A stretch of 64,000 nt of DNA from Balanoglossus misakiensis (taxonomy: Eukaryota > Animalia > Hemichordata), in contig CM082587.2 of assembly GCA_040954595.2 (NCBI GenBank), positions 1,765,000 through 1,828,999 of the forward strand, read 5' to 3'. Below the pieces are notes generated by a model. That model had not been told where the DNA came from. It made no database searches and was given only the letters and a program-made list of their open reading frames with translations. The position numbers were made by a program, and so were the translations under genes. This document shows positions 734 through 43,928 of this stretch, in pieces (position 1 is the stretch's first letter; each line of letters begins with the position of its first letter).

Positions 734-3700
734 ATGGCAACCAAACGACTCGGTGAGGTTTTCGGCAAACAGGCTCTCAGCAGCCACTTACACTGCGACT
801 ATGTCGCTGACGTGCGCTGCGTCTCCGTCGATGGAAATACAGACTGGGCTGAGTTGGAGAAGGAAAACCCCTGGCTGGGAAGCGAAGTGAGTAGCCTTGT
901 TTTCTAACAATTCATTCAGCTGTGTATTTGTGGAAATTTTGACATTTTTCTTTTGCTCTTGTATATCTTCAGGTTGGTTTTACAGATAAATTCACAGTCA
1001 GACAAATAAGTTAATACATACATACAATGCACATGCACACATTCAGTAGTATGATAGACTGATCCGGGTCAGGCCTGGTTCCGGATGTTAAAACCCAAAC
1101 CAACAAAATCAGTGCCAGGATATAAAGGTCACATAGTGTCACGAAAGTAGCCTATTGGAATTACTGCTCATTTATACAAGGAATCTTGATTGACATACAG
1201 AGTGGAAATTTATTTTAATAACTTCGACAGAAGCATTTCCCGTGTCATTTTTTTTAGAATCTGGTTGTGAAACCGGATCAACTCATCAAGAGACGAAGCA
1301 AACATGGACTGGTTCATCTCAACAAAGACTTGAAATCCGTCAAAGAATGGATAGCCGACTACCAAAGCAAGGAAATCGAGGTCAGTGACAGTATGCAGTT
1401 TTACTTGTACTTTTTTAAATTACTGGAGTAGCTTTTCGTTTATGTAGAATTACATTGTGTAAATTTTGTTTTATTTTTCGGATATATTTGTCGGACACTT
1501 ATACTTATTATCCTTTCTGGAATGTTTAATCAATGTGGTTTAACTCGTATGAAAGTAAAATGCCTAATTAAACTAATGTTCTTGTGCAGGTGGACGGGGT
1601 CAAGGGTCGCGTACAAAAGTTCATAGTCGAACCGTATGTTCCGCACGACCAGAAAGATGAGTACTACGCCTGCGTGTACTCCACCAGAGAAAATGACGTC
1701 ATCATGTTCCACCACGAAGGAGGCGTGGATGTTGGAAACATTGACGAGAAGGTGAGTCAAGTGCGGTGTCTCTGAGAAGTCGACAGTTTGTGTGATTAAT
1801 ATACATGATATTAGTTTTCTAACATACTGTGCAGGAATTTTACTAAGTGACCCAGTCAGGCAAGAGCAAGCGAAAATGAATGCTCACAAGTGAGCGAATA
1901 CACCCCGAAGAGAAGTCCAATGAATATATGGACTGACATGGCCCCAGCTTATTGGCTGACCCGATTTTGTTTCAGGCGAATAAATTAGCTGTCAGCATAG
2001 ACGGTGATGTGAGCAAAGAGGAGATCAAGAAAGAACTGGTGAAAGGGGTTCCGCCGGAGAAAGAAGAGTAAGTCGAACAATCTTTCATTTTGGATGCAGT
2101 TGAGTTATTTTTCGGGAGAGCAGTGATACAGGGAAACGTCATTCGAAAAAATCGTGCTTTCCCGATGACAGATAATATGGTAATATCTCCCATGCAACAG
2201 GTGTTGGTCTTCGCGCAAGGAAGAAATTCTTTTGTTGTTTGTGGTCCAAGAAGACAAAAGGCATCGATTTCTCTGACACGAGTATACGTTTACCGGAGTC
2301 ACGTTTCTGTGCATTTCACTTGCCAAAATACAAAAAAGTAATAGCCCAACCTACGCGTAAACTATGTATTTTTTTACAACATAAAACTGGACAGCGATTA
2401 AAGCAACATCGATGTAATATCTTTTCCTGCAGAATGCTCGCTGATTTCCTGGATAGCCTCTTCAAAGTTTTCCGGGCGCAGTGCCTGACCTACGTGGAGT
2501 TGAACCCGCTGGGTAAGTCCGTCTATTAGTTGAGGCGCTCACACGCGCCTCCCTAAAATTAACCATTCCATGCATTGGGTAGTATGTTATCGCTTATGTT
2601 CGGCCAAATCACACATGACAAGTCACAGGCAGATAATGATGCATAAAATATATTCTCGTTCGTCTCTCACAGTGGTCACAGATAAAATCTATCTGGTCGA
2701 CGTGGCTGCTATGATGGACGTCCTTGCATTTTCATCAAAGCTTCAGGCGGTCGGCAAATCCATCGAGAAGACCAGGGTGAATTTCACCACACCATTTGGA
2801 CGTGAGCTGCTGCCTGAGGTAAATGAATTAAATTGCAAAGATGTGGTTATTCCTTACTTACCATTGGTTAAGTTCTATAATATCTACGTATTAATCCTAT
2901 TTATAATTGGTAAAAAATCAAAGATTAAATGCACGATAATTTTGTTCACAATTATAGGAAGTTCGAGTAGCCAAGCTAGATCAACAGGGACCCGGTGAAT
3001 TCAAACTGACGGTCCTGAATCCCAAAGGACGTGTTTGGATGATGGCCGGTGGTGGCGCTTCCTCCTTGTTTTTGTGGTGAGTCAAACCACAGTCACTCCA
3101 CACTGTGGTCAAACCAAATTATTCATCGCTCAAGAATCTTCAGATCGGAGATGATAGTACGGAATTGTAAGAATTTGTTTCAATCATTTATGCCCTCTGT
3201 GATTTGTTTCATTTACACAGTGATGCGGTGTGTGATGTTCTTGGTGCGGACCAGTTGGCCAATTATGGTCAGTTTTCCGGCAAAGCTGTCGGTGGAGAAC
3301 GATCGGAGTTTGCGCAGATAATAATCGACTTGATGACCAGGGAAAAAGTTGACGGAGGCAAACTGTTCTATGTTGCCTCGACCGTTGGTCCCGTTGGTAG
3401 CGGCAAGGGAAGTTCGGATGTTTTCGTGGTATGTAAATAAAGTCTAGCAAGCGTTTATATTACTCTTTAGTCGCTTATAGTCGCAGATATCCGCTAAACG
3501 ACATCTGAAAAAGGTCGAGCAACTGATCAACCAAATGAATTTTCTTGCAGGCAGTGGTAGACGTCTTGAAGGCAAACAAGGACAAATTGAAAGAGTACAA
3601 CATAACCATAGCTGTACAACAAGGCGTTGTCTCTAAGGATACAGGCAGAAAAGAGTCTTTACAAAAATTAGGTAAGCAAACGCCAAAATGTTCAGTGCAC

Positions 3701-6595
3701 TAACGATGTCTACCTATCAATATATGACCGATATCCTTTTCCTGTTACCGTTTTCCAGAAAACTTTCTAGGAATTCCAGTACACGCTTATGGTCCAGACA
3801 AGAGTTGCCAAGACATCTTGAGTGAAATATTTAAAATAGATCTTTCCACCGTCGCCAAAAAGACAAATGCCGTGAGTAAACCCTCGATTTTCAACTACCA
3901 ACATCATGTTGAATTTGACGAAATTACAAAGATTTCTATTCCTATCCTTTTATCTATTTTACCAAACATTTCATCTGTTACTTACTACAGAATGTCGAAA
4001 ACGGTGACGATGATTTTGACTATCTGACTTTGGCTGAGAAGAACTTTAAACCAGAACAAACACCCTTCACCAGTAACACTAAGGTAAGCTGTCGTTTTGA
4101 TCGTGTAGATATCGATCTGAACCTCACGATTGGCTTTTGTAATAATGTCATGTACCACTTGCATTCATTTGTGTAGGCACTATTTGCTGGAATTCCACGA
4201 CCCGTTGTACAGGACACCCTCGACGTCGATTTCATTGGATCAAGAACAACGCCATCAGTGGCAGCGTGGATACAACCTGACAGGTGACAAATTTTGGTTG
4301 GTTTGAAATCGGGAAAACATAAGCCAAAATATATATAACGTCATTCCAGAGGATTATATATGTTACCGGTGTTCCTTTGTCTTCTCTAAGTACTTATCTT
4401 TTTTTTTTCTTTTTAAACAGTGAAGAGACTGAGGCCAAATTCAGATGGGGTGATGGAGTCATTTCAATACCAGGTTAGTTGATTATCTTATCAGTAGAAA
4501 GACACGTCAGAAAATACTCTATATATCTCTGTTCGACGTCATCATAATGTTCTCGTCAGACACAACCGTAGAAATTGATCTCTTGTGTCAAAAACAGTCC
4601 TGATTGAACCACATTTTGAAACCATCGTTATGGGTCACGTGACTGCGGGTGTACGTTACTTTTGATTGACCAAATATTCGGTTTTTATTTCAGTTTACAA
4701 GAGGATTGACGAGGCGTCTGAAAATCACAGCGACGCTGATGTCCTGGTTTTGTTTGCACCGCCGCCATTGGCCTTCAAAGCCTCCATGTTTGCCCTCAAA
4801 CAACCAAAGGTAAATTAGCATATATTCTTGGCCAGTATGTATGTATGTATGGTGCAGCTTCGTTTATGATCTATTATATTCATTTAATCCAGATTATCAC
4901 TTCTTCCAGATTAAGACTATCATTCTGAATGTCGGTGGCATGTCAGAACTACAGAGCCGTCAACTTCTGAATCTTGCAAAGAAGAAAAACGTGACAATCA
5001 TAGGACCGGGATCGGTGAGTTCCCTTCCAAAAGCAACGATCTAGATTTGTAATAACAGTCCTATAATTGGACATGAATCACTATTACTGAATTTGGAAAC
5101 TGGCATAATGTTGGTCACTGGTCCGGACAGGCAGGTTTCCATAAATGACCAATGGCTGGTTGAAGCATAAAACACGTGACCACTTCATCATGTTTCTCTC
5201 TTTTTTACATTTACCCAGATTGACTAAATTTAAACTGTCTGATCATTACTTTATTTTCAGCTGAAACACCCGATGCAGGTTGGAGGCATTAAACCCGGAT
5301 GTTTCCAGTTTGGAAGAATGGGTGGGAATGCGGATAACGTGTTGGCCTGCAAGCTGTATCGCCCAGGCAGTGTGGCGTTGGTATCCAGAACAGGTGGTTT
5401 GTCTAATATTGTAATTCACACCATCGCACAACACACTGATGGAATCTATGAAGCCATTGCCGTCGGCGGGGGGAGGTAAGCTTTGTCTGGTATTATTTTC
5501 GTCCGTCTTGCTTTCCTGTCCTGTTTTACAGATGTGTTGCTTATGTTTTAGTCAGGTACATGGACACAGAGCACACCAGTGATTATGACTGTCTGGTTCC
5601 TCTTCCTGGTACCCGAAAATACACCTTCCAATTCTGCCACATAACAGCATAATTCCACTCTGACGTTATCTTTGTGACCCCCTTTACAGCTACACCGGTA
5701 CATCCATGGTCGGACATGTTCTGGGATACCAAAACAACCCCGATGTCAAACTTATTGTTGTTCTAGGCGAGGTATGTTCTCAAATCTCTAAAGAATGACT
5801 TTAACGTCAAAGAGTACGATTCTAAAGATTTAATTCTATATTCCAGTATCAATTGAAGCGACCCTTTCAATGAAGGTATTCTATCCACACACAGGTCGGA
5901 ACGGCAGAAGAACATGATGTTGCTGTGGCAATAAAGAAGGGCCTGATAACAAAACCTGTGGTGGCGTACTGCGTTGGAACTTGCGAGTCTGCTTTCAAAC
6001 AACAGGTACTGGTCCTCAACTTTCTTTAACTGTGACCAATTTCTGGAACTCTCATTAACGAACCTTACAAACAACCTGAGTATTGAGAACGTGTAGTCGT
6101 CTATGATTTTATTTCGACAATAGATCAGGTAATTCTACAGTAAATGTTTGACTGGTTGTGTTTTTCTTCCTCATTTAGCCTGTTCAATTCGGCCATGGTG
6201 GCCTCACAACCGTCGGTGTAGCTGAAACGGCCACTGGTAAAAACAAAGTCTTCAAAAATGTCGGAGCCATTGTACCAGAGTGTTACGATGACATTGGGAA
6301 ATGTTTGAGGTATGTACGAGCACATCCCGCGGATAGATGATTAAAACTTGCAAAATACGACTGCACAAATAACGGAAATATGTGAGGCCAAAAGCGTGCA
6401 GAATATCATACACTAGTTTAGCAGAAACCCGCTCACAACATTCTATAATCAGCATACTCACAAAGCTGACTTTTACAGACTCGGTATTAAAATGTTTTCT
6501 CCCACAGTACCGTATATCAAGAATTGTTGAGTAAAGGTATTGTTGCACCGAAACCCGAGATCCAACCTCCAAGTCTCCCCGCAAAGGACAAATAA
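734..6595 (+). CDS. Divergent ATP-citrate lyase paralog: fused CCS-beta/CCS-alpha (acyl-CoA synthetase) module only, no C-terminal citryl-CoA lyase domain; ~799-805 aa, 20 exons
   Basis: Hand-spliced GT-AG exons: 734-886, 1258-1380, 1590-1751, 1976-2067, 2433-2512, 2673-2818, 2958-3076, 3221-3428, 3551-3671, 3759-3871, 3991-4083, 4177-4283, 4421-4473, 4694-4809, 4910-5014, 5261(or 5279)-5475, 5690-5771, 5895-6005, 6179-6309, 6508-6595. All phases are compatible. ACLY motifs: [78 protein letters not shown]. Ends ...[15 protein letters not shown]. Confidence 0.93.
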
Positions 6596-6984
6596 TTGAA
6601 CTGCACGTTCAACTGTAAGAAGAAACGCAGCTCTAGATTACAGCGCCATACTTTCTGAGGCGAGTTGTGTCAAGTATTTGGATTTGCAGAAACTTTCACG
6701 TCATGCGCACGTGTTTTGCAGTGCCTTCATAATTTGGATGACGAACCAGAAAATACTTTAGAAACAACTGAGGATTTTATCGGGATTTTATTTATAACAT
6801 GACAGAAAAATTAACTGTTGGGAGTGAACTGCTGTAGATAAGAGTCTTGTGTAGAATGCCAGCCCTTATATACAGAAGAGATACATTTATATTGTAATGT
6901 AAATTTTATACTTTTTCGCAGTCAATGTTTGCAGAAAAGCGTTGAGTTAAAATGTCTTATAGCGAATAGAATTATGTTGATATG

Positions 6985-7119
6985 GAATGAATGAATGAAT
7001 GAGTGAGTGAATGAACGAATGAATGAACGAATGAATGAATGAATGAATGAATGAATGAATGAATGAATGAATGAATGAATGAATGAATGAATGAAGTGAG
7101 TAGGTGAGTGAGTGAGTGA
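6985..7119. repeat. (TGAA)n microsatellite with GTGA variants
   Basis: Direct tandem GAAT/TGAA units visible; these produce the spurious FIHS-repeat ORF 6972-7292. Confidence 0.97.
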
Positions 7120-7919
7120 AATCTTATCTCAATCAAGTTTGTTACAATTATTTTGAATATTTCCATAGTTTTTATATCTTGTCGCATTTCTGCGCTGTGG
7201 ATACAAATGTTGGTAAACAAGTCGAAATTATTGCGATATACGTTTATAATAATAAATAAATAAATAAACCAGTGTCCCATAACCACTTGCACTTAGGAAT
7301 TTCGCGTTTGCTACTAGATTAATCTAAAGAGGGTACAAACTGCCGTTTCCATGATAAGACATCGAGAAGTCTACATGTATTCTCGATTATTTCACACCAC
7401 ATTGCGATATTTCTACTAAATGTAATCACAGACATTCCAATCAAAACCATAACTTACACCTAAGCACATTTAGCGACCCCCTTCAGAATCAAGAAGCTGG
7501 CCAGTTCCCTAATATAAGACGAATATCGTGTCATTGCGGAAGATAAAGAGCTAAACATTCATCTGTGCAATGGTACCGCGAAGGGAATCCTGTATGACTT
7601 CAAAACGAGGCGGGGAATCCCTCTGTCGTCACGCATTTCCGGTTCATATATTTGTAGAAAAAACGACTTTATTCCTCGAAATTTAGTGTCTCTTAGGGTC
7701 TGTCTGTGGTCGCATATTATTATTTTAATCGAATGTTCATCCAATTTCGGAATAAAATGTCTTGGGAGGAGGAATTTCACTAAAAGAAATGCATGTACAA
7801 AAACGTAAGAGTAAAGATACAGCAAACAAGCGAACGAGGAGTCTGTGTACGTACATGGCGTCCTGAGAGCTGTCGGTTTCTACTTCGTTGCTGTGAAAAT
7901 TCGTGTTTGTTAATCAACC

Positions 7920-10431
7920 ATGGGGTTTCCAGCTGCTCTAACGGAAGAAGAAGAAATACTCAAGAGGAAGTATGCATTACTTCGGAAGAAGGTAATTCAA
8001 GGAGATAAATATTAGCATAATGATGTGTGGACTGTTGAGGATTTTGCCATCCTATGGCCCATTAAAGTCCACCTTTCATTCAGAGATTAACGTAATTGCA
8101 GCACATGTAATAGAGACTTTGACACCGTTAATGATACTACATACATCTAAGCTTGCACTCGTATCTTATTTTACAGAAGAAAGCATTGCAGCAAATGAAA
8201 CAGATAAAACGACAAGCTAGTACATCTACAGCATCGACACAGCAGAAGAGAAGTAAGTAAAGTAATTCACGATGGATTCTCCATATATGATATAATTTCA
8301 CAGTCTGTGAAATGACTCAGTTGGCATCTGAAGCTTTTGAAATGGCTTAATTGCTTAGCTGTGATGTAATGGCCATGGTTAGTGTGATGAGATAGACACC
8401 TTCTGTGGCAATTCCTAAGTTGGTCATGTTTTTCCTGTTGTCTGTTTCAGTGGCTGTAGAAGAAGTCAGTGAAGGAGCTAAGGTAGCTGCCAAGGAAGTG
8501 GCCAAAAAATTAGTCGCTACTGGCGTAAGTGTTTCAGTGGTTGGGTGCCATTTTCTATCTTGTATTATGTACCTGTTGTCGTTATTGTTGAAACATTGAT
8601 CCAAAGCATGTTTGTCTCCCATAGGATAAGTTCAAGTTCGCATCTAGTCAATATATTTGGCCTTTACCATCTTTGTATGATGCCATCCTTGTTGCAGGCC
8701 ATTAAGTTAGATCCGGACAGCAAAAGCTCTGGTTTCAAGAGATCCAAGAATCTTGAGCACAAGCTGAAAGATCCTGAGAAATCCCACAACACACTAAGTT
8801 TCCAGCCATTCAATCCAAGCCTGCCGAGTTCAGAAGATGGTACTCCGTCACCCAATAAAACCGTCAAACCACTCTATGAGAGGTATATAATGTATAATTT
8901 GTCCTTTTGGTCACCACACAAATCACATTGTTTCAGCTCTGTTGTTTGTAGTAGTACAGATAATCCATGTTCATGTACATGGGTTGACAGTAGCATTGGC
9001 ACAAGTTTTTGCATTGAGTATACTGGAACCAGTGCGAAGCTTCTAGCGACATTTCCAAGTTACAAAGTGTTTACACTTATACAATCTCCTTTAGTATGAA
9101 ACAAGTGAACAATGTGTAATTTAAAATTATTCTTTTTTCAATTTTCAGTTTCGTGAGCAGTGGAACAAGTGGTTCCTTATCAAGAGAATCCAGTAAGTTT
9201 GTTCATTTCCTCCCTGTTAGCTGTCTGACAATCTCTCTGCCTCTCTCTTTCTCCCTCCCCTTCTGTCTCGTAGAGAATACATGAATGATTTCTTGTCGGG
9301 CACAACAAGCAGTTTCCTCAATCCTTTTACTTTCTTCAAATTTTAGGACCAGGTGGCCACTATGATGACAGACGAGAGCGCAAGAAAGGAAACACAGTAT
9401 ATGTTCATGGCCATGGCATCACAGAGCAGATATGTCAACAAGCTTTCAGCAGAATTGGTAGAATTGTCAATATAAATATGGAACGAGACAGAAGGCAAGT
9501 TTCTCCATGTTTCATGTATGATATGCTAGGAGGGAACACAGTTCAGTTTTTCAGCTGTAACCCGTGTATCTATAGCAAATTGTATGTTTCTATGTGAACA
9601 AAGAATTTCTGTTGAAGTACGTGCATTAGATTTGCCCAGCCATTTGAATTTTCTATACTCTTTTAAATATGGCATCATGACCCCTCTCATGTATGTCAAA
9701 AATAGACCACAAGCCATGCAAATTGTCATTTGCTTTTAAATATGCCAAGCCCCGTGTCTTTATTTATACTTTCACTCTTTGAAAGCCACCTGATGTTCTA
9801 TTTCTAAGTAAAGCTTTCCAGTAATAGTAGTGCATTCAGTTGTATTTTTAGGTGTAGTGTTCAATCACTCAGAATAGAAGTAAAGTACTGTGTATGTCGA
9901 AGAGATGGATTTAAAAAAATAAAATCCAGAATTTAGCCAAGCCTTTTTTAGATCCTCTAGCCCCCTACATGTGCACATTGGTAACAAAAAAGATGACAAG
10001 GAGTTTTTATCTTTATTCCAATAGTTGTGGGTTTGTTACCTTTGAGAAAATGGAGATGGCAGACAAAGCTATCGATGAAGTCAGTGGTACCCTCGTGGCA
10101 AGTGTCTTGTTGAAAGTGTCCATGGCAAGACGACAGCCTATGTTAGAAAGTGCCACAGATAACTCCCCATGGGGCAGTGTAGGTAGGTATTGTGACATCA
10201 GCTTTACATGTGGAATCATACTGTGAGAATTTGGATGGAAGCACTGGGATGTGTGTAGAAAGTCAGTGATGCCTAAATGAAGCCAACAGTTTCACCATGT
10301 GTATTCTCATATTCATACACACAGTGCATTTATTAAAAATATGGCTGTTTATCATTACAGCTGCCGGGATCACCAAAAATTCCCACAGAGAAAAACGAGA
10401 AATGGTCGTGTACGATGAAGATGCATTTTAA
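7920..10431 (+). CDS. NELFE: Negative elongation factor E (NELF-E), 8 coding exons
   Basis: N-terminus MGFPAALTEEEEILKRKYALLRKKKKALQ; GFKRSKNLE and FQPF motifs; RRM (KGNTVYVHG...CGFVTFEKMEMADKAI...VSMARRQPML); C-terminus HREKREMVVYDEDAF*. Exons ~7920-7991, 8177-8252, 8451-8524, 8698-8882, 9149-9192, 9347-9494, 10025-10182, 10361-10431. Confidence 0.93.
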
Positions 10432-12953
10432 GTCAAATGGTTGTGCATTTTATTTGCCATTCCACAAGACAAGGTACTCTTCTGGGTCCTGTTACCAAAG
10501 CAACAACTCAACTAAATGTGAGACACAATCTCATAGTTGTTGACTGAATAATAGGGTGCTTTCAGTGAAGAACGCCCTCAGTGTTCACAAAGAGGCGCAA
10601 GTATGCTCTCACAGACTGCCTTTTTGTCGTTATGAGACTTGTGTGTGTCTCAAGGTTTGATAATCTGTATATAATGGTTTCACATCAGTGAATCTGCCTT
10701 ATCAAAATACCACACATGGTGTCGATAAACGACTACACTGGATGAAATGATGTCAAGTGTGGCCACCCCTATATACTGAAGGACAACACACAATATGAGT
10801 TATCATACGCTGTGGAAAAATATGGCAATAGTGCACGAGACTCAAACAAAATATGGTCTTCATAATTATTGTGCTGAGCAAAGTGCATTGAATGCTCATG
10901 GGTTAAGTGCCCTAGGCTTGAAAGAGTGTTCATTGTACCACGATCATGAAAACGAACAAGTCCAGGCAGTTTTTTTTCTCTTATGAAAATACTCGTTTAT
11001 TCCAAAATCACTTAGCTTTACACTGAGTAAAGGGTAATTGATGTACATCAAAATAAATAAACATGATGGTGATGATGATGTCCACATTCTATAATGCCAT
11101 TGGGAAAAGACATTGTTCCACTATCTATAATAACATCCAGATATGAAATTGTCTGTAGTGTATTAACCTCTATGTAAAAGTTGTGTTAAACAAGTGTGAA
11201 AGTACACACACTCCGTCATCCAAATTGAAAAATCTGAATTTTGATGATAGTCTGGAATATACATAATATAACACAGCTTTCAATGTTACAGACACAAGAA
11301 AAGTTAAAAGTAAAAATTTGAAATTTATTGTAATTATCTCCCAGGCTTAAAACTATATAACCCCCTCATCATATGCTGTAGTGAATTGATCCAGCTTTGA
11401 AATGCCATGAACTGGATGATACCATTGGTTATTTTAGGGGATGCGCTGTGAAAGTTTCCCAACAAGAGTTTGACAAAAATGAGATGTCTTTCTCGATTTT
11501 TCAAGTTTCCGTCTACTGTACAGTGGAGAGACTAAGATACTCAAAATGGTATATACAATGGGAAGAAATTGGTTCTTGTGATACTGGCAATGGCTAATGA
11601 AATATTGATAAGATTACACAACTGAATATCAGTCCAAGTTAACGTTTGTCTGGTTGCCAGTTTTTAGAAATGGATATCAACAAACCCATTCCACAGAGGA
11701 AATGCTGTGAAAATGAAAATGACAGCTTGGACTTACTCTTCCCATTAACACTCGTGGAAAAGCTGTGTAAATGATACAAGTGGCGTTCGAAGGGCGAAAA
11801 GGGAATTGGTGCGGACACTAGTACAATTTACATGTAATCCAAGGTATGTGACAGCGAATGTACAATGTTCAGATTTTATTTTTGGCTGTAGAGACACCTT
11901 TCCACCACCAGTGTTGTTCCATCTTTACCATTCAAACCAATGATTTGACTGAACTGTTATGGTGAAAGGGATGTTATTGCATCGTTGTGTCCTGTGTATT
12001 TACACCCAGTGGAGCAATCCTGATTGAGAGTCAGTCCAACTAGGGCACACTGCAGACTATGAATTTCATAGAGGGACTGAGCCGAGTCCATACGGCCCTT
12101 TTTAATAATAAATACATGATTGTATAATTTTGCTCTTCCAAAGCAGAATTAATAACAAATTTAATTTTTAGTCACTGTACATGTGAACAAATTCTTCTTG
12201 AGTTGTGTATTTGTACAGCGATCACATGCAAATTGGATAAAAAGCACCATATCTTGAAATCAGTCCAATTACAAATGTCATGTTCTCCATGATTCAGTCA
12301 CTTCTCAATGGTTCACATTCTATGGTAAAGTTAGACCTTTTGAAGTGTGAAAGAGTAATGTATGTCAACGGTGCCTAAGCAAATTCGAGTGGAAAAGTGA
12401 ACAAGACAGAAAATGATTGATGTGCTCAATTTGACCATTCAGAATACAGCACTTTAACAATTTGCATAGTAAGCATAACCAGGTGCCCATGCATGTTATG
12501 TGTCAATACATCAATATTTTTAACTTAATGCAGACATAAAACAGATTGTACTAGTAGATGAATAGCATGTAAAATTTAATTAACACAAATTTTGACAGTT
12601 CTTGAAATTGAGCTCTGCTGTATGCATGGCTACCACCATCCCACCCTAATTCTGAAATGGGGAATTCATTAACAATGGGAAGACTCAACTGTTTTGAAAG
12701 ACTGGGGGTGTCCGAGCCACTTGTGGGAGGGGTAAATACTATGTACATCAAATACAATCCAGGTACCCAATAATGAAAATATGTTAAAAAGAAAAAATTT
12801 GAAAGTGTGAGGAGTACACTTTTTCATTATTACACCTAACGTCAGCCTTTCCTGGGAGACATTAAAGTTAGAAAAGAAAAACACAGAAAATATGTTTGTT
12901 TTTGATAGTTGTCTTATTGTTGGGTTTGTACATGTTCGTATTACAGAGGCATG

Positions 12954-29909
<16,956 letters not shown>

Positions 29910-30144
29910 ATTTGCTATCGGGAGATCCCGGTGCACACACACTCCAACTTTTGTATGGTTTCACGATCGCCGATCGGATTGTTCGATCATGAAGCTCAAA
30001 TCGCCATCAAATTCTCAGAATGGTAAATTGTGTAAAATCCAGAGCTTTCCGGCAAAATAGCGATGTTATCCCCAAGTAAACTGGTCAGATATCGAGTGAC
30101 AACACTAGCAAACTCATCAAACCGTCAGTAGAAATTTTGATACT

Positions 30145-30569: not shown

Positions 30570-32324
30570 ATGTGTGGCAGAACAGCTTGGTAAGTACTAG
30601 TGCACCTGAAGTTGAAATATGATCATGACAGTGGTAAAACAAAACAAAAGTAAACATGCCCCGCCCACTTTATTACCAACTACGGTACGCAAATGAAACA
30701 ACACTAGTAAACTATCACTCCATAACATTATTTCAAGAACATGTCCTTTCTTCTTTTATCAGTACACTCAAACCAACAGATATCTGCAATGCGTGTGCAT
30801 ATAAAAACAAACAGGGGAAACGAACACGCCCCCAGTGGAGAGATGGAGGGGGAGGTGGTGGTACTGATGGCAGCTCAACTTCTGGAAAACAGTATCAGAC
30901 ATCATACAATGTGGGACCTCAATCATACACGTGAGTTATCTGCTAAAAAAGTTTGCACTCTAGTACGTCAAATAAAATGAAGAATGTACCAAGTTTGCAT
31001 ATTTTTCGTCCAACTATTTGAAGTTCATGATATCATGTTTGTTTTTGCCACCAGACCAATCATGGTTTCTAAGGCTACACTTGATGAAGGCAGCAAAGCT
31101 GTAGAAACTGAAGGGGAAGAGAGAGTGATCACTCCTATGAGATGGGGACTTGTTCCATCCTGGCTCAAAGGCAGCCCCAACAAGTTTAGTTACAGAACCA
31201 TCAATTGCAGAGATGACAGCCTCAAAGAGAAAGCTATCTTCAAAAGACCTCTGGAGAGAGGCAGAAGATGTGTAGTATTGGCTGATGGGTAAGGAAGTGT
31301 TGTATACTTTTCCCCACAACAGCAGAACTGAAAAGCCAACCAATTTTTCTGTCAGATAAAACCTGAACACTACTACAGTGTCTCATAGAAATCATGCGCT
31401 GAAGATGTTGTGTTTGTGGTACAAAATAAATACATGATCTCTTCATACCATTCCTCATTTTGCAGTTTCTATGAATGGAAGAAAACCAAGGATGGCAAGA
31501 AGCAACCCTACTTCATCTACGTTCCCCAGGACACAAATTGGTCGGAAGAGGCTCAGGAAGAGAAGAACTACGATGCGGATGGTAACTGGACTGGAAGACG
31601 AGTCTTGAAGATGGCTGGAATTTATGACATACTGAGACCAAAGAATGAGGGTGAGGAACCCCTGTACACTTACACCGTCATTACAGTGTCCGCATCACCT
31701 GAGTTGTCATGGTTACACGATCGCATGCCAGCCATATTGGAGAATGACGAGGCCATCCGCGACTGGTTAGATTCCGGCACCATCCCGGCCAACAAGGCAG
31801 TTGACCTCATCAAGCCAACAGGCAAAGTACAGTGGCATCCAGTGTCAATGGTTGTCAACAGTGTCCGGAACAAAGAACCAGAATGCATCGTGCCAGTTGA
31901 TTTAGAGTAAGTGTTACTTCAGCCATTATTTTGTGATGAGACGTCATGCATTGTATTTTGAAGTGATGCCACACCCATTGGTGAGGGTACAATGTTTCCA
32001 TCCTGTTAAAGTTGATCTAATGTACTTTCGTTAATGCAATACAGCAAGAAGTTAGATGCTGCAGTTTGCTAGCTATGATCTAACAATATTTTGTTTCACT
32101 TCTGCAGCAAGCCAAAACCAGAAAGTAAATTGATGTCAGCATGGCTGGCAAAAGGAAGCAAAAGTGCTCCCAAAGAAGAAAAGTCCAGCAAGACCAGTCC
32201 GAAGAAAAAGAAACCAACTCAGAACTTGCTGACTTCTTGGGTGAAAAGAGAAAGTCCAAGAAAACAAAAGATGAAAGAAGAGGCAGAGGGAAGTCCATCA
32301 CCAAAGAAGATCAAGACTTCTTGA
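30570..32324 (+). CDS. HMCES: Abasic site processing protein HMCES (SRAP domain), 5 coding exons
   Basis: MCGRTAC N-terminus with catalytic Cys2; MRWGLVPSW, INCR, RRCVVLADGFYEW, KQPYFI, LHDRMPAIL motifs; basic C-tail with QNLLTSWV PIP-like motif. Exons ~30570-30589, 30763-30930, 31054-31288, 31466-31906, 32108-32324. Confidence 0.96.
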
Positions 32325-40928: not shown

Positions 40929-43928
40929 TTACTGTGCCATTACTCGGACACATCCGGTATATTCATCCACTACGACCACCTTTGCAAATGGCTCGTCATC
41001 GCTGACACATATACCAAGGGGGTGTCGGACACCGTCCTGGTCACTGTCAACGCGACAGATAAAGTTCCCAATCATGTCGTACTTCATCACGCAGTGTCCA
41101 GTGTTGTTGCAGACGTACACGTAGCCGCGACTGTCAGTCGCTATGCCGGTGTGGAAATCCGTCTGACCCGGCTTCCTCTTGACGAAGTCGAAGTTGTACA
41201 GAAACTCGCCGCTCTCCGTGAAGACGCCGACGCGACTGTTGTTGCTGTCCGTAACCAAGACGTTGCCAGTTGTGTAGTCCACGGCCACGCACCACGGGTG
41301 GTTCAGCTGACCCTCTCCGCTACCTAGACTTCCAAAAGTAGCGACAGGTCGGCCGTCTAGTCGGAAAACCCGCACGCGATGAGAAGAGTGATCGACGACG
41401 TACACTTTACCGCTGGCGTGGTTAACGGCAACACCCCTCGGGTCGGTGAGGCGACCTTTTCCGAAACACCTGACTAATTTCCAGTTTTCATCGCACACCA
41501 GCACCTGTTTGTTTCCGCCATCCGTGATATAGCAACTACCGTCGCCGTGTGACACGGCCGCGAAAAGTGGTATGCACTGCTTCGCAAACCCAGAAACACG
41601 AACGACCCTCCGCTGCTCTCCTTCCATAGTGAACACCTGCAGTCTTTCATGTCTGGGATCGCACGCCAAAACTTCACCTTTCCTGGTCAACGCCACGCCT
41701 CGCCGAAGCCAACCCATATGTCCAACTCCGGCCTCCGTCTGTCCAAACTTATACAGCACTCCTTTGTGAGAGATGACGTTAATATAAACTGGAGACCTTT
41801 GCACTGGTTTTGAACCTACTGTCACCGAGAGTTCGTGTTCTCCTTCGGCTTCTCCATGACAACGTAAAACGAAGATGCGGTTCCCCGCTATACTATTGAC
41901 CTCAACCGGCCGAACGTCACCTTTCGGAGATGTCAGCTGCGCATGTATGTCAAGAAAAGATTCAAGCATTATACGCTCACTTCGCTTTATCAATGTGACG
42001 TGAATTTCCTCCCCGATTCGTGTAAACTGTGGAATGTCACGAAGTTCGTAATCCTCGCACCGATCGTCTTCTAAAGCAGTGGTCATGGCCACCGGGGTTT
42101 TTGTGGTCACAGGTGTACTTTCTGTTGCGTGGTTTGTTAAAGAATCCATTTCTGCATCACTGGTAACGTCGGTTGTTGCTATGATAGAAGCTGTGTCTTT
42201 TTCTATGGTTTCGGCATCGGGGTATAAGACTGTCTCGGCGGTCAGCGCTATGGCAACCTTTGGTGTGACAAGTTCTGTGGAAGGGACGGTTGTTTTAGAA
42301 TGTTTTATTGTCGAGTGATCAGACTCGACGACCGTTGTCATCTGACTTTCTGGCCTAGCGTGCACAACTGCAACAGAAGGCACCGGTTTGGTCGTATTCG
42401 TTGCGCTTGATTCTGCTTCACCGAAACATATTGTGGTAGACTTTATATTGAAAGACGCTTCTGTCTTGAACACAGTTTCGGTCGATGGCTCAGTTGTGTA
42501 AATATCATGTTCATTTGGTAAACTGTCCGCTAGTGTAAGTTTTGTTGTCGGAGATGTGTCGGAATCTGCAGAGGTTGTTTTCTCTGTAATGGAGTTCGAC
42601 ACTGGAATTGTTGCAACAGTCGATACTGTTAACTCTGGATCAGGAGGAAGCGTTTCTGTTTCGCAAGTTTTCGGTTCCGGTGGACCAGTTGCACAAAATG
42701 CTACCATCGCTGCTGTTTCTGCCGTTGGAAATTCGTGCTGATCATGCATAGAAACTTGGAAACCATTTTCTCTTCGATGGATCCTGCTAGATTCCTCTGT
42801 TTGTGACTTGACGGTGTGAATAACGCCCAGGCGCTCGGATTCGCAAAAGTTATCGTACGGTTTGAACTCCGGGTAGTCGTTCGTGATTGGCGAAGAGTTT
42901 GCTTCATCAGCCAAGAGTTTGTTGACCCTAAGAGTGAGCCCTCTACGGGCGGATATCACTTGTATTTTGTCCTCACTTCGAAGGAGTGTCTCCGTCGTCT
43001 CTTTCGCGTCTGCCAAATATCTTAGCGTACTTTCACATTCTTTTAAAAGAGCTTGATTGTTTACTTTCCGAGATCCAAAGACATCTTTCAGCTGTTCCAG
43101 TAATTGCTTGCTATTTTCCTCGATTTTTCGGGTGACATCTTGAATCGCACGTCTTTTATGTGCTTCAATCTTCCTCTCTTCTTCGCGATGGCAGTTCTCC
43201 AACGCAGTTGCCATATCTTGAACCTCGATCCGCCTGCGGCTGACTTCTTTTTCTCTTAACATGATTTTATCCATTTTTGCCGTTAGTTCTTTAGTGAAGT
43301 CGACTGCGGCAGTTTCCACGTCCACAGATTTGTGTTCAGGCTGTCTATGGTTACTCGTTGTGCATTCAAGGCAGACGGTAACATCGCAACTTTCACAGAA
43401 TAACGACAATTCGTTGTCTGAGTGTTTGGTGCAGTAAAACGGACGCTGTTCTGCACTAGTATAAGATCGCGGTTCAACCATATTTGTATGATTGTCCTCG
43501 ATAGCAACCAAAACATGCGACCTACTTGTAGAAGCGTTCCTGTGAATACAGGAGCAGGAATAGCATAATTGTACTGCGCAGTCCATACATTGATTTGTTA
43601 AGTTAATATCCTTACAAACGGTGCATCTCGGGATTGCTTCGGCGGACACACTTCCCTTCGCGGAGAGTCTTTCAGTTTCGCAGACAAGATTGGCCACCGG
43701 CTTTAACTTTTCGGCCGCTCCCATAAATTTCTGCGACGTTTGGTGTGATCGACGACACATGGGACAGTACAGTCCACCGCTTTTGTCCACAAGCGTGTCT
43801 ATACACCGTTCACAGAAACTGTGCAGACACGGCAAGATATTGGCGTCCTGGTACCACTCGAAACAAATCCCACACTCCAGAAAGTTGTCGTCAACCTCGT
43901 GTAAAAACTCAAACTCTGCCGCCGCCAT
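40929..43928 (-). CDS. Intronless TRIM-NHL E3 ligase (RING, B-box1, B-box2, coiled coil, T/S/E-rich insert, filamin, NHL repeats), TRIM2/3/71-like
   Basis: 999-aa single ORF. C3HC4 RING CGIC...CLHSFCERC...CPMC; B-boxes CTVC...CMDC...CYSC..H...H and CTKH...FCESC...CLEC...H; filamin GEHELSVTVGSKPVQRSP; NHL repeats DPRGVAV, FGSLGSGEGQLNHPWCVAVD, HPLGICV. Good Kozak context (atcATGG). Confidence 0.93.
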   Translation of the reverse strand: MAAAEFEFLHEVDDNFLECGICFEWYQDANILPCLHSFCERCIDTLVDKSGGLYCPMCRRSHQTSQKFMGAAEKLKPVANLVCETERLSAKGSVSAEAIPRCTVCKDINLTNQCMDCAVQLCYSCSCIHRNASTSRSHVLVAIEDNHTNMVEPRSYTSAEQRPFYCTKHSDNELSLFCESCDVTVCLECTTSNHRQPEHKSVDVETAAVDFTKELTAKMDKIMLREKEVSRRRIEVQDMATALENCHREEERKIEAHKRRAIQDVTRKIEENSKQLLEQLKDVFGSRKVNNQALLKECESTLRYLADAKETTETLLRSEDKIQVISARRGLTLRVNKLLADEANSSPITNDYPEFKPYDNFCESERLGVIHTVKSQTEESSRIHRRENGFQVSMHDQHEFPTAETAAMVAFCATGPPEPKTCETETLPPDPELTVSTVATIPVSNSITEKTTSADSDTSPTTKLTLADSLPNEHDIYTTEPSTETVFKTEASFNIKSTTICFGEAESSATNTTKPVPSVAVVHARPESQMTTVVESDHSTIKHSKTTVPSTELVTPKVAIALTAETVLYPDAETIEKDTASIIATTDVTSDAEMDSLTNHATESTPVTTKTPVAMTTALEDDRCEDYELRDIPQFTRIGEEIHVTLIKRSERIMLESFLDIHAQLTSPKGDVRPVEVNSIAGNRIFVLRCHGEAEGEHELSVTVGSKPVQRSPVYINVISHKGVLYKFGQTEAGVGHMGWLRRGVALTRKGEVLACDPRHERLQVFTMEGEQRRVVRVSGFAKQCIPLFAAVSHGDGSCYITDGGNKQVLVCDENWKLVRCFGKGRLTDPRGVAVNHASGKVYVVDHSSHRVRVFRLDGRPVATFGSLGSGEGQLNHPWCVAVDYTTGNVLVTDSNNSRVGVFTESGEFLYNFDFVKRKPGQTDFHTGIATDSRGYVYVCNNTGHCVMKYDMIGNFICRVDSDQDGVRHPLGICVSDDEPFAKVVVVDEYTGCVRVMAQ

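Follow-up and report, generated by a model that had tools for sequence, protein, structure and literature searches.

An ACLY-derived gene of Balanoglossus misakiensis without a lyase module and with remodelled citrate and CoA sites

What does an ATP-citrate lyase (ACLY) become when its citrate site is rebuilt and its lyase module is absent? In this study, we addressed this question in a window of 64,000 nucleotides from the hemichordate Balanoglossus misakiensis (GenBank assembly GCA_040954595.2, contig CM082587.2, positions 1,765,000 to 1,828,999 of the forward strand). The window, by which we mean this whole stretch counted from its first letter, holds an ACLY-derived gene at 734..6595 on the plus strand, with 20 exons encoding 805 residues. 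The protein has ATP-grasp, citrate-binding-type, CoA-binding-type and ligase domains and is without the lyase (CCL/CSH) module. An initial annotation of 3361..3640 had reported that the citrate-binding site was replaced by a Walker-A-like loop, GPVGSGKG. The local motifs that it described are present, but larger changes elsewhere in the gene lie outside its coordinates.

Our preferred reading, held tentatively and with a little less than even confidence, is that this spliced and selected ACLY paralog acts as a CoA-independent phosphotransfer enzyme on an acceptor other than citrate. We favour it because the ATP-grasp and phospho-His residues are intact and those of the citrate and CoA sites have been replaced.

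Gene structure, truncation and relatives

Exons 1-10 lie at 734-886, 1258-1380, 1590-1751, 1976-2067, 2433-2512, 2673-2818, 2958-3076, 3221-3428, 3551-3671 and 3759-3871, and exons 11-20 at 3991-4083, 4177-4283, 4421-4473, 4694-4809, 4910-5014, 5261-5475, 5690-5771, 5895-6005, 6179-6309 and 6508-6595. The 20-exon model contains no internal stop, and all 19 introns run from GT to AG. Three read runs from one sample (X1, X2 and X3), all labelled 'DNA?', cover the gene. Among the X3 contig rows listed, 13 of the 19 introns were skipped as joints and 2 more as loose ends, with introns 1, 3, 4 and 5 lying outside those rows. Both introns flanking exon 8 were spliced out at GT..AG in X3 contigs. None of the X3 splice joints was seen in X1 or X2. 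Because X3 skips introns while X1 and X2 do not, we take X3 to be spliced RNA. Among the coding differences in the stronger rows listed against the three runs, 18 of 22 were synonymous, compared with 22.7% expected (p=7e-9). We conclude that this is a genuine, spliced gene maintained by purifying selection. A gene-model artefact or pseudogene is ruled out by the X3 splicing, the intact open reading frame and the synonymous excess, and a retrocopy or recent horizontal transfer is ruled out by the 19 spliceosomal introns.

The reading frame ends at a TAA stop (6593-6595, plus strand), which corresponds to about residue 826 of human ACLY and lies upstream of the lyase module; the transcript continues as 3' untranslated region. 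An X3 contig joins 6309 to 6508, passes the TAA and reaches 6823; the 16 letter differences listed for it all lie outside the stop. The ortholog from Ptychodera flava (XP_070582143, 804 residues) shows 78% identity to the window protein over 803 residues, compared with 38-40% for canonical ACLYs. It has the same end point, and PF00285 is absent from it by Pfam. The full-length echinoderm members described below also end there. Six lyase-module queries against the 64-kb window gave no match (best E 0.18). The truncation before the CCL/CSH module is genuine, since the reading frame stops at the start of that module, a spliced contig crosses the TAA, and the ortholog and the full-length echinoderm members end alike. 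Beyond the 3' untranslated region covered by X3 lie a tetranucleotide microsatellite (6977-7121) and an A-rich repeat (7243-7275) with AATAAA at 7251 and 7259.

The relatives were sought by a HMMER search against 1.84 billion representatives. The best 150 of 3226 matches, followed by a column scan, gave six further representatives with the same marks, and their clusters comprise eight echinoderm proteins. These come from Diadema (XP_071498562, XP_071507817 and XP_072176880; two from D. antillarum and one from D. setosum), Acanthaster planci (XP_022105155 and XP_022091448, two genes), Apostichopus japonicus (XP_071821848 and PIK48842, two genes) and Holothuria leucospilota (KAJ8038674). They are named ATP-citrate synthase or ATP-citrate synthase-like in the databases and are 30-37% identical to the window protein. 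The lyase module is in none of the echinoderm models, three of which are partial. Where the sites are covered, the members share E306Q, E599G, D690G, P693T and an H-x-x-Q insertion (mammalian ACLY numbering, 1101 residues, as used below).

In a quick tree of 36 rows, three of them long nematode rows, the short forms came together as a single clade (SH-aLRT 99), and they did so again (support 100/100) in a careful tree of 21 rows, from which those rows and 12 others were dropped. Branching within the clade follows the host groups, namely hemichordate-type, starfish, and urchin with sea cucumber. Long branches could help to unite the short forms, but the tree has no bearing on the insertion and truncation that they share. 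The clade was placed outside bilaterian ACLY without starred support, and its grouping with echinoderm ACLY was not rejected (p-AU 0.09), so the trees are compatible with a duplication on the ambulacrarian stem. In a vertebrate-type ACLY model with exon skipping (P0271), several junctions coincide with window exon boundaries. These shared junctions suggest that the subfamily arose by duplication of an animal ACLY gene. We conclude that the short forms are an old ambulacrarian subfamily that has been misnamed "ATP-citrate synthase-like".

The exon query matched only P. flava among 54 candidate longer proteins. No further close ortholog was present among the best 120 of 429 matches in a full-length word search, and a search of short proteins gave 12 matches at 36-41% identity, all canonical-like. 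Look-up of ten ambiguous N-terminal fragments named no additional member from the Ambulacraria. A short-form profile run over 285 proteins scored higher only for its own 11 source entries, a partly circular result. The range of the subfamily may be wider than the members given here, because the echinoderm members surfaced only in the HMMER search and only its best 150 of 3226 matches were used. Among the proteins examined, no species had both a canonical and a short form (canonical in Patiria and Antedon, short in the others). No published description of this lyase-less subfamily was found in the open literature, subscription journals lying largely outside the search. Three nematode ACLY-like proteins, from Caenorhabditis auriculariae (P0199), Mesorhabditis spiculigera (P0195) and C. 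angaria (P0142), are separate and highly divergent and have no aligned His760. P0199 (778 residues) is also without the lyase module, and the three are possibly independent pseudo-enzymes.

The rebuilt citrate site and the Walker-A motif

The canonical sets used for comparison hold 84-96 sequences. The loop that in ACLY carries N346 and T348 is rebuilt in the window protein as 17 residues (3375-3425). It had been annotated as about three residues longer than the human loop, and the PDB alignment gives three. GPVGSGKG lies inside it (3387-3410), and K354 (3405-3407) is aligned to the T348 position. In exon 9, AVQQGVVS (3611-3634) replaces the RRGGPN motif, with Q385 at the R379 position. N346, T348 and R379, which we take from ACLY crystal structures to be citrate-binding residues, are thus S, K and Q in the window protein. 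They are nearly invariant in canonical ACLYs (N346 in 96/96, T348 in 95/96 and R379 in 96/96). S343, which had been counted with them as a citrate determinant, is not a conserved one: 90 of the 96 sequences have G at this site, and 6 have S. R378 and F347, each present in 96/96, are both replaced. In exon 8, NYGQFSG (3261-3281) keeps the equivalents of S308 and G309 and has Q309 in place of E306. E306 is invariant in 96/96 canonical ACLYs, is D in Escherichia coli SucC, and is Q in 9/9 covering subfamily rows.

The translation of exons 8 and 9 agrees with the three motifs as first described, and all three are identical in P. flava. The rebuilt motifs are among the longest identical runs between the two proteins (17, 12 and 42 residues). 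The 17-residue loop is neither a sequencing error nor drift, because it is one of 17 identical runs of at least 10 residues between proteins that are only 78% identical, and it is constrained in the hemichordate-type branch. The proposed loss of citrate specificity is well supported by these comparisons, because the near-invariant N346, T348 and R379 are replaced and the lyase module is absent. Since K354 is aligned with T348, its side chain would face the former substrate pocket, where it could stand in for the lost charge of R379. In the hemichordate branch it could bind an anionic acceptor, possibly phosphorylated or sulfated. Such a placement fits an anionic acceptor and implies no nucleotide site.

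A synthetase of this family that works without a fused lyase is known from Hydrogenobacter thermophilus, in which the citryl-CoA synthetase CCS (PDB 6HXQ) is a lyase-free unit and the lyase CCL acts in trans. The window protein has the same domain content as CCS, and its nearest solved structures are those of ACLY and CCS. However, CCS is a two-subunit bacterial enzyme making citryl-CoA, whereas the window protein is an animal protein of ACLY origin, fused into one chain, with altered citrate and CoA motifs. The equivalents of N346, T348 and R379 are replaced, E599 is lost, and the 64-kb window holds no lyase-module sequence. It is therefore highly improbable that the protein is a citryl-CoA synthetase served by a separate lyase.

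We then considered whether GPVGSGKG is a nucleotide-binding loop. Adenylate kinase and UreG carry P-loop motifs to which the loop had been compared. As in Walker A of P-loop NTPases, an exact GxxGxGK string stands behind a hydrophobic strand and before a helix, and it is identical in the P. flava ortholog. It occurs in 0/131 other ACLY-type proteins examined. Chance had been named as a possible source of the match. In 5000 shuffles of the window protein, GxxGxGK occurred in 5.1% and GxxGxGKG in 0.6%, for a pattern that was picked post hoc. The strict pattern [AG]x4GK[ST] is absent from the window protein, and G stands in place of the Mg-binding S/T.

Conservation of the motif in orthologs, which had been named as a check, failed beyond the closest ortholog: GxxGxGK is present in 2/2 hemichordate-type loops and in 0/7 echinoderm subfamily loops. 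The echinoderm loops instead are four residues longer than canonical and carry D-x-x-T, and a Diadema model has an extra helix at 343-349. An echinoderm G-E-G was considered as the counterpart of G-K-G and rejected, as the alignment and a shared intron place it at F354-K355-G356.

The ortholog was modelled with AlphaFold2 from a 97-sequence alignment that held no other sequences bearing this loop (mean predicted local distance difference test score, pLDDT, 85; predicted TM-score 0.87). The model has a strand at 339-344, coil at 345-354 and a helix from 355 to 369, with pLDDT <50 at 347-355. Walker A is described as GxxGxGK[T/S] located between beta1 and alpha1 of the P-loop domain and helical from Lys7 (PMC11959459). 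In the model, by contrast, three residues separate the end of the strand from the first Gly, and the helix begins after the Lys. GPVGSGKG sits after a middle strand of the citrate-binding fold and not at beta1-alpha1 of a P-loop fold. No P-loop family or fold match was found in the Pfam results for the ortholog, in the Foldseek rows listed or in the Atlas; the Foldseek rows were all ACLY, CCS or succinyl-CoA synthetase (SCS) entries, and the Atlas rows were citrate-binding domains.

The loop thus differs from Walker A in the T/S after the Lys, in the beta1-alpha1 location and in conservation of the motif across the family, and the protein already has an intact ATP-grasp site of its own. These results argue against the proposed nucleotide pocket, and GPVGSGKG is probably not a nucleotide-binding P-loop. 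A true Walker-A-like nest for a nucleotide or polyphosphate, which would make the protein a ping-pong nucleotide kinase, is accordingly improbable. In the best explanation, GPVGSGKG is a hemichordate-specific substrate loop, and the echinoderms rebuilt the same loop differently.

Phosphotransfer residues, the CoA side and possible chemistry

In the ATP-grasp region (exons 1-6, 734..2818, plus strand), K56, R64, E116, E199, N201 and D213 correspond to human K58, R66, E118, E201, N203 and D216, and all are present. E696 (5769-5771) corresponds to E718, and the RTGG start of a power helix is also intact. His739 (6194-6196) corresponds to the catalytic phospho-His760. Together with G282, S308, G664 and G665, these residues are all retained in the window protein. 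K58, R66, E118, E201, N203, D216, G282, G664, G665 and E718 are present in every covering subfamily row, and H760 is in 6/6 covering rows. On the beta side, GGG has moved to AGGGA (A280G, G283A). The ACLY catalytic centre is given as G281-283, S308, E599, S663 and G664-665 (PMC11365397). Of this list, S308, G281, G282, G664 and G665 are the same in the window protein, which has T in place of S663, A in place of G283 and G in place of E599. Citrate_synth_N scored 261 bits in the P. flava ortholog by Pfam. Behind the D216 strand (2700-2770, residues ~220-235), where ACLY has a W-G motif, the two hemichordate-type proteins are longer by about five residues; these are modelled as a helix.

Compared with the ASH/CCS module of animal ACLY (EC 2.3.3.8; PDB 3PFF, 5TE1, 6HXH), the window protein has the same domain order, fold, ATP-grasp residues, His760 and E718. 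It differs from animal ACLY in the missing CCL/CSH lyase and tetramer module, in the replaced citrate loop, RRGGPN, E306, E599, R576, D690 and P693, and in a six-residue insertion. The ortholog model keeps the ACLY ASH fold (Foldseek TMt 0.93-0.94 against truncated human ACLY). Pfam, this model and Foldseek all show the superfamily fold, with ATP-grasp, CoA-binding and two ligase subdomains. The ATP-grasp residues and phospho-His760 place the protein with ACLY; the lost N346/T348/R379 and lyase module set it apart. Like SCS (SucC/SucD), it has the ATP-grasp, the swinging phospho-His loop with its partner Glu, the power helices and the location of the substrate loop, as judged at the level of sequence.

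This retention bears on whether the protein is a pseudo-enzyme, that is, a sensor or scaffold that binds ATP and possibly phosphorylates itself, or a protein that binds a ligand but does not turn it over. The substrate loop varies between lineages, two starfish models are without the His region, the branches are long, and three conserved acids near the acyl-transfer site are gone, all of which would be expected of such a protein. However, the full phosphotransfer set (ATP-grasp, E718, H760 and power helices) is present in members from sea urchins and sea cucumbers and in those of hemichordate type, and the rebuilt motifs rank among the longest identical runs between the window protein and P. 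flava. A pseudo-enzyme is therefore quite unlikely.

The CoA side has also been altered. In the CoA-binding-type domain (4177..5014, plus strand), Q505 is replaced by P477, R507 by P479, F533 by D505, S574 by P546, R576 by P548 and E599 by G571 (codon 4934-4936). Q505, R507, S574 and R576 are, as we assume from ACLY crystal structures, CoA-binding residues. G668 (5471-5473) stands for D690 of the GGD motif, which is present in 84/84 canonical ACLYs and also in E. coli SucD. Q505, S574, R576, S577, E599, D690 and P693 are each found in 84/84 canonical sequences, and all are replaced in the window protein. E599 is G in 9/9 and D690 is G in 8/8 covering subfamily rows. The acid at E306, E599-G600, D690 and P693 also occur in E. 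coli SucC/SucD. Because these sites are common to ACLY and SucC/SucD, they appear to be very old traits of CoA-using enzymes.

Six residues, LKHPMQ (5261-5278), are inserted at the GP-A-T/V-G-G loop. They start exactly at the exon 16 acceptor, directly after the X3 splice joint 5014-5261, and end in the CAG codon before V-G-G, so that the GP-N-C/GP-A-T loop is broken. His600 and Gln603 of the insertion are invariant in the 8 subfamily rows covering the site. The insertion likely arose via an 18-nucleotide shift of the splice acceptor, judging from this placement; the Holothuria model enters intron-like sequence at the same point. CoA_binding scored 19.6 bits in the ortholog, under the Pfam cut-off of 22.3, compared with 38.1 for Patiria ACLY. 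The CoA-side motifs common to SucD and ACLY, namely the Glu-Gly, the unbroken GP-x-x loop and GGD, are thus absent from the window protein, as is the catalytic E599. Pfam gave no support for a suspected resemblance between 'ASTVG' and a flavodoxin loop.

Wei et al. (2023; PMC10115795) report that isolated ASH binds citrate and ATP and makes citryl-phosphate, with no CoA binding alone. In the same source, E599 is an important catalytic residue, F347 touches the pantetheine arm, and the part played by the CSH module and by E599 is an open debate. Docking contacts of ACLY inhibitors are given in PMC9504748.

Gene structure, splicing, the stop, purifying selection, the residue changes and the clade were established directly, and the chemistry that follows is inferred throughout. 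On the general swinging-His mechanism (PMC13018889, PMC13670275), Mg-ATP would bind the intact ATP-grasp site, and the gamma-phosphate would pass to His739 on the swinging loop. The phospho-His would then dock on two power helices, whose Gly-rich starts are largely retained together with the S308/G309 subsite. The phosphate would be transferred to a different small acid or hydroxyl in the rebuilt loop, in which the work of N346, T348 and R379 would fall to K354 and a series of backbone NH groups. The CoA thioester step would be absent, and the phosphorylated product would be released or captured by another nucleophile. The inserted His600 is a candidate new base in place of E599.

Several points weigh against this CoA-independent phosphotransfer. 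The worst-modelled parts of the ortholog, with pLDDT <50, are residues 598-601 in the insertion and the loop at 347-355. The expression evidence comes from a single run of a single sample with the 'DNA?' label, whose RNA status is deduced solely from intron skipping. R379 is retained at the aligned column in both Acanthaster rows. Both Acanthaster models (P0139, P0170) are also without the His760 region; in P0139 about 49 internal residues are missing, which matches window exon 19 approximately, and the other model stops early. This may be a model error or a real lineage-specific decay or loss. Furthermore, the characterised superfamily members are acyl-CoA synthetases, and those described in PMC13018889 all use CoA. 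The CoA-type Rossmann domain is well folded in the model, and FAPPPLA is closer to SucD YVPAPFC than to ACLY FASLRSA. This likeness and the folded domain mean that CoA binding could have been regained.

The last of these points lead to an SCS-like ADP-forming acyl-CoA synthetase for an acid other than citrate, in which stand-alone CoA binding re-evolved in domain 1 once the lyase module was lost, and His600 activates the thiol. All four synthetase domains are retained and well modelled, acyl-CoA formation is the norm of the superfamily (PMC13018889), the x-P-x-P motif is SucD-like, and the two hemichordate-type proteins share 78% identity in domain 1. However, no member retains the Glu-Gly in ITEGI/IAEGI or the GGD Asp, both of which are common to E. 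coli SucD and ACLY. SucD's Gly-rich CoA turn, GFTGSQG, has become a Pro-rich GIPRPV/GVPPPV, and TPGKG has become an acidic QPDSEE. The lack of CoA binding by isolated ASH (PMC10115795) and the Pfam CoA_binding score under the cut-off point the same way. We regard such a synthetase as unlikely.

CoA-independent phosphotransfer can be extended to a bolder proposal, which we consider doubtful. The subfamily would be the first CoA-independent SCS/ACLY branch, an ambulacrarian phospho-histidine kinase/ligase. It would have evolved from ACLY when the lyase module was lost and when exonisation added six residues to the CoA tunnel. Each lineage would have re-invented the substrate loop, and in acorn worms this loop would have become an anion nest, convergent with the P-loop, that takes up a phosphorylated or sulfated acceptor.

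Meaning of the subfamily and neighbouring genes

Animals have been treated as having one kind of ACLY. The new kind is a lyase-less, CoA-site-remodelled ambulacrarian subfamily, and its residues predict no citrate cleavage under an "ATP-citrate synthase-like" label. Because the residues argue against citrate cleavage, expression studies in sea urchin, starfish and sea cucumber may misread the subfamily as lipogenic ACLY. A natural, selected ASH-only protein also bears on the debate over the CSH module and E599 (PMC10115795), and it shows a way to ask what the synthetase half does without CoA. If the protein is truly CoA-independent, this would be new chemistry for a superfamily known only for acyl-CoA formation, and it would point to a new echinoderm/hemichordate metabolite pathway.

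Other genes were recognised downstream in the window. The next gene (7920-~10300, plus strand) starts MGFP and has an RNA-binding-like exon near 9969; we take it to be NELF-E-like. A PKN-type kinase gene on the minus strand (~12950-30000) has Pkinase exons at 13583-14080 and an HR1 repeat at 29392-29964. An SRAP-domain exon, HMCES-like, lies at 31410-31910 on the plus strand. At 40929-43928, on the minus strand, there is an intronless open reading frame of 999 residues with RING, B-box and NHL domains (TRIM-NHL).

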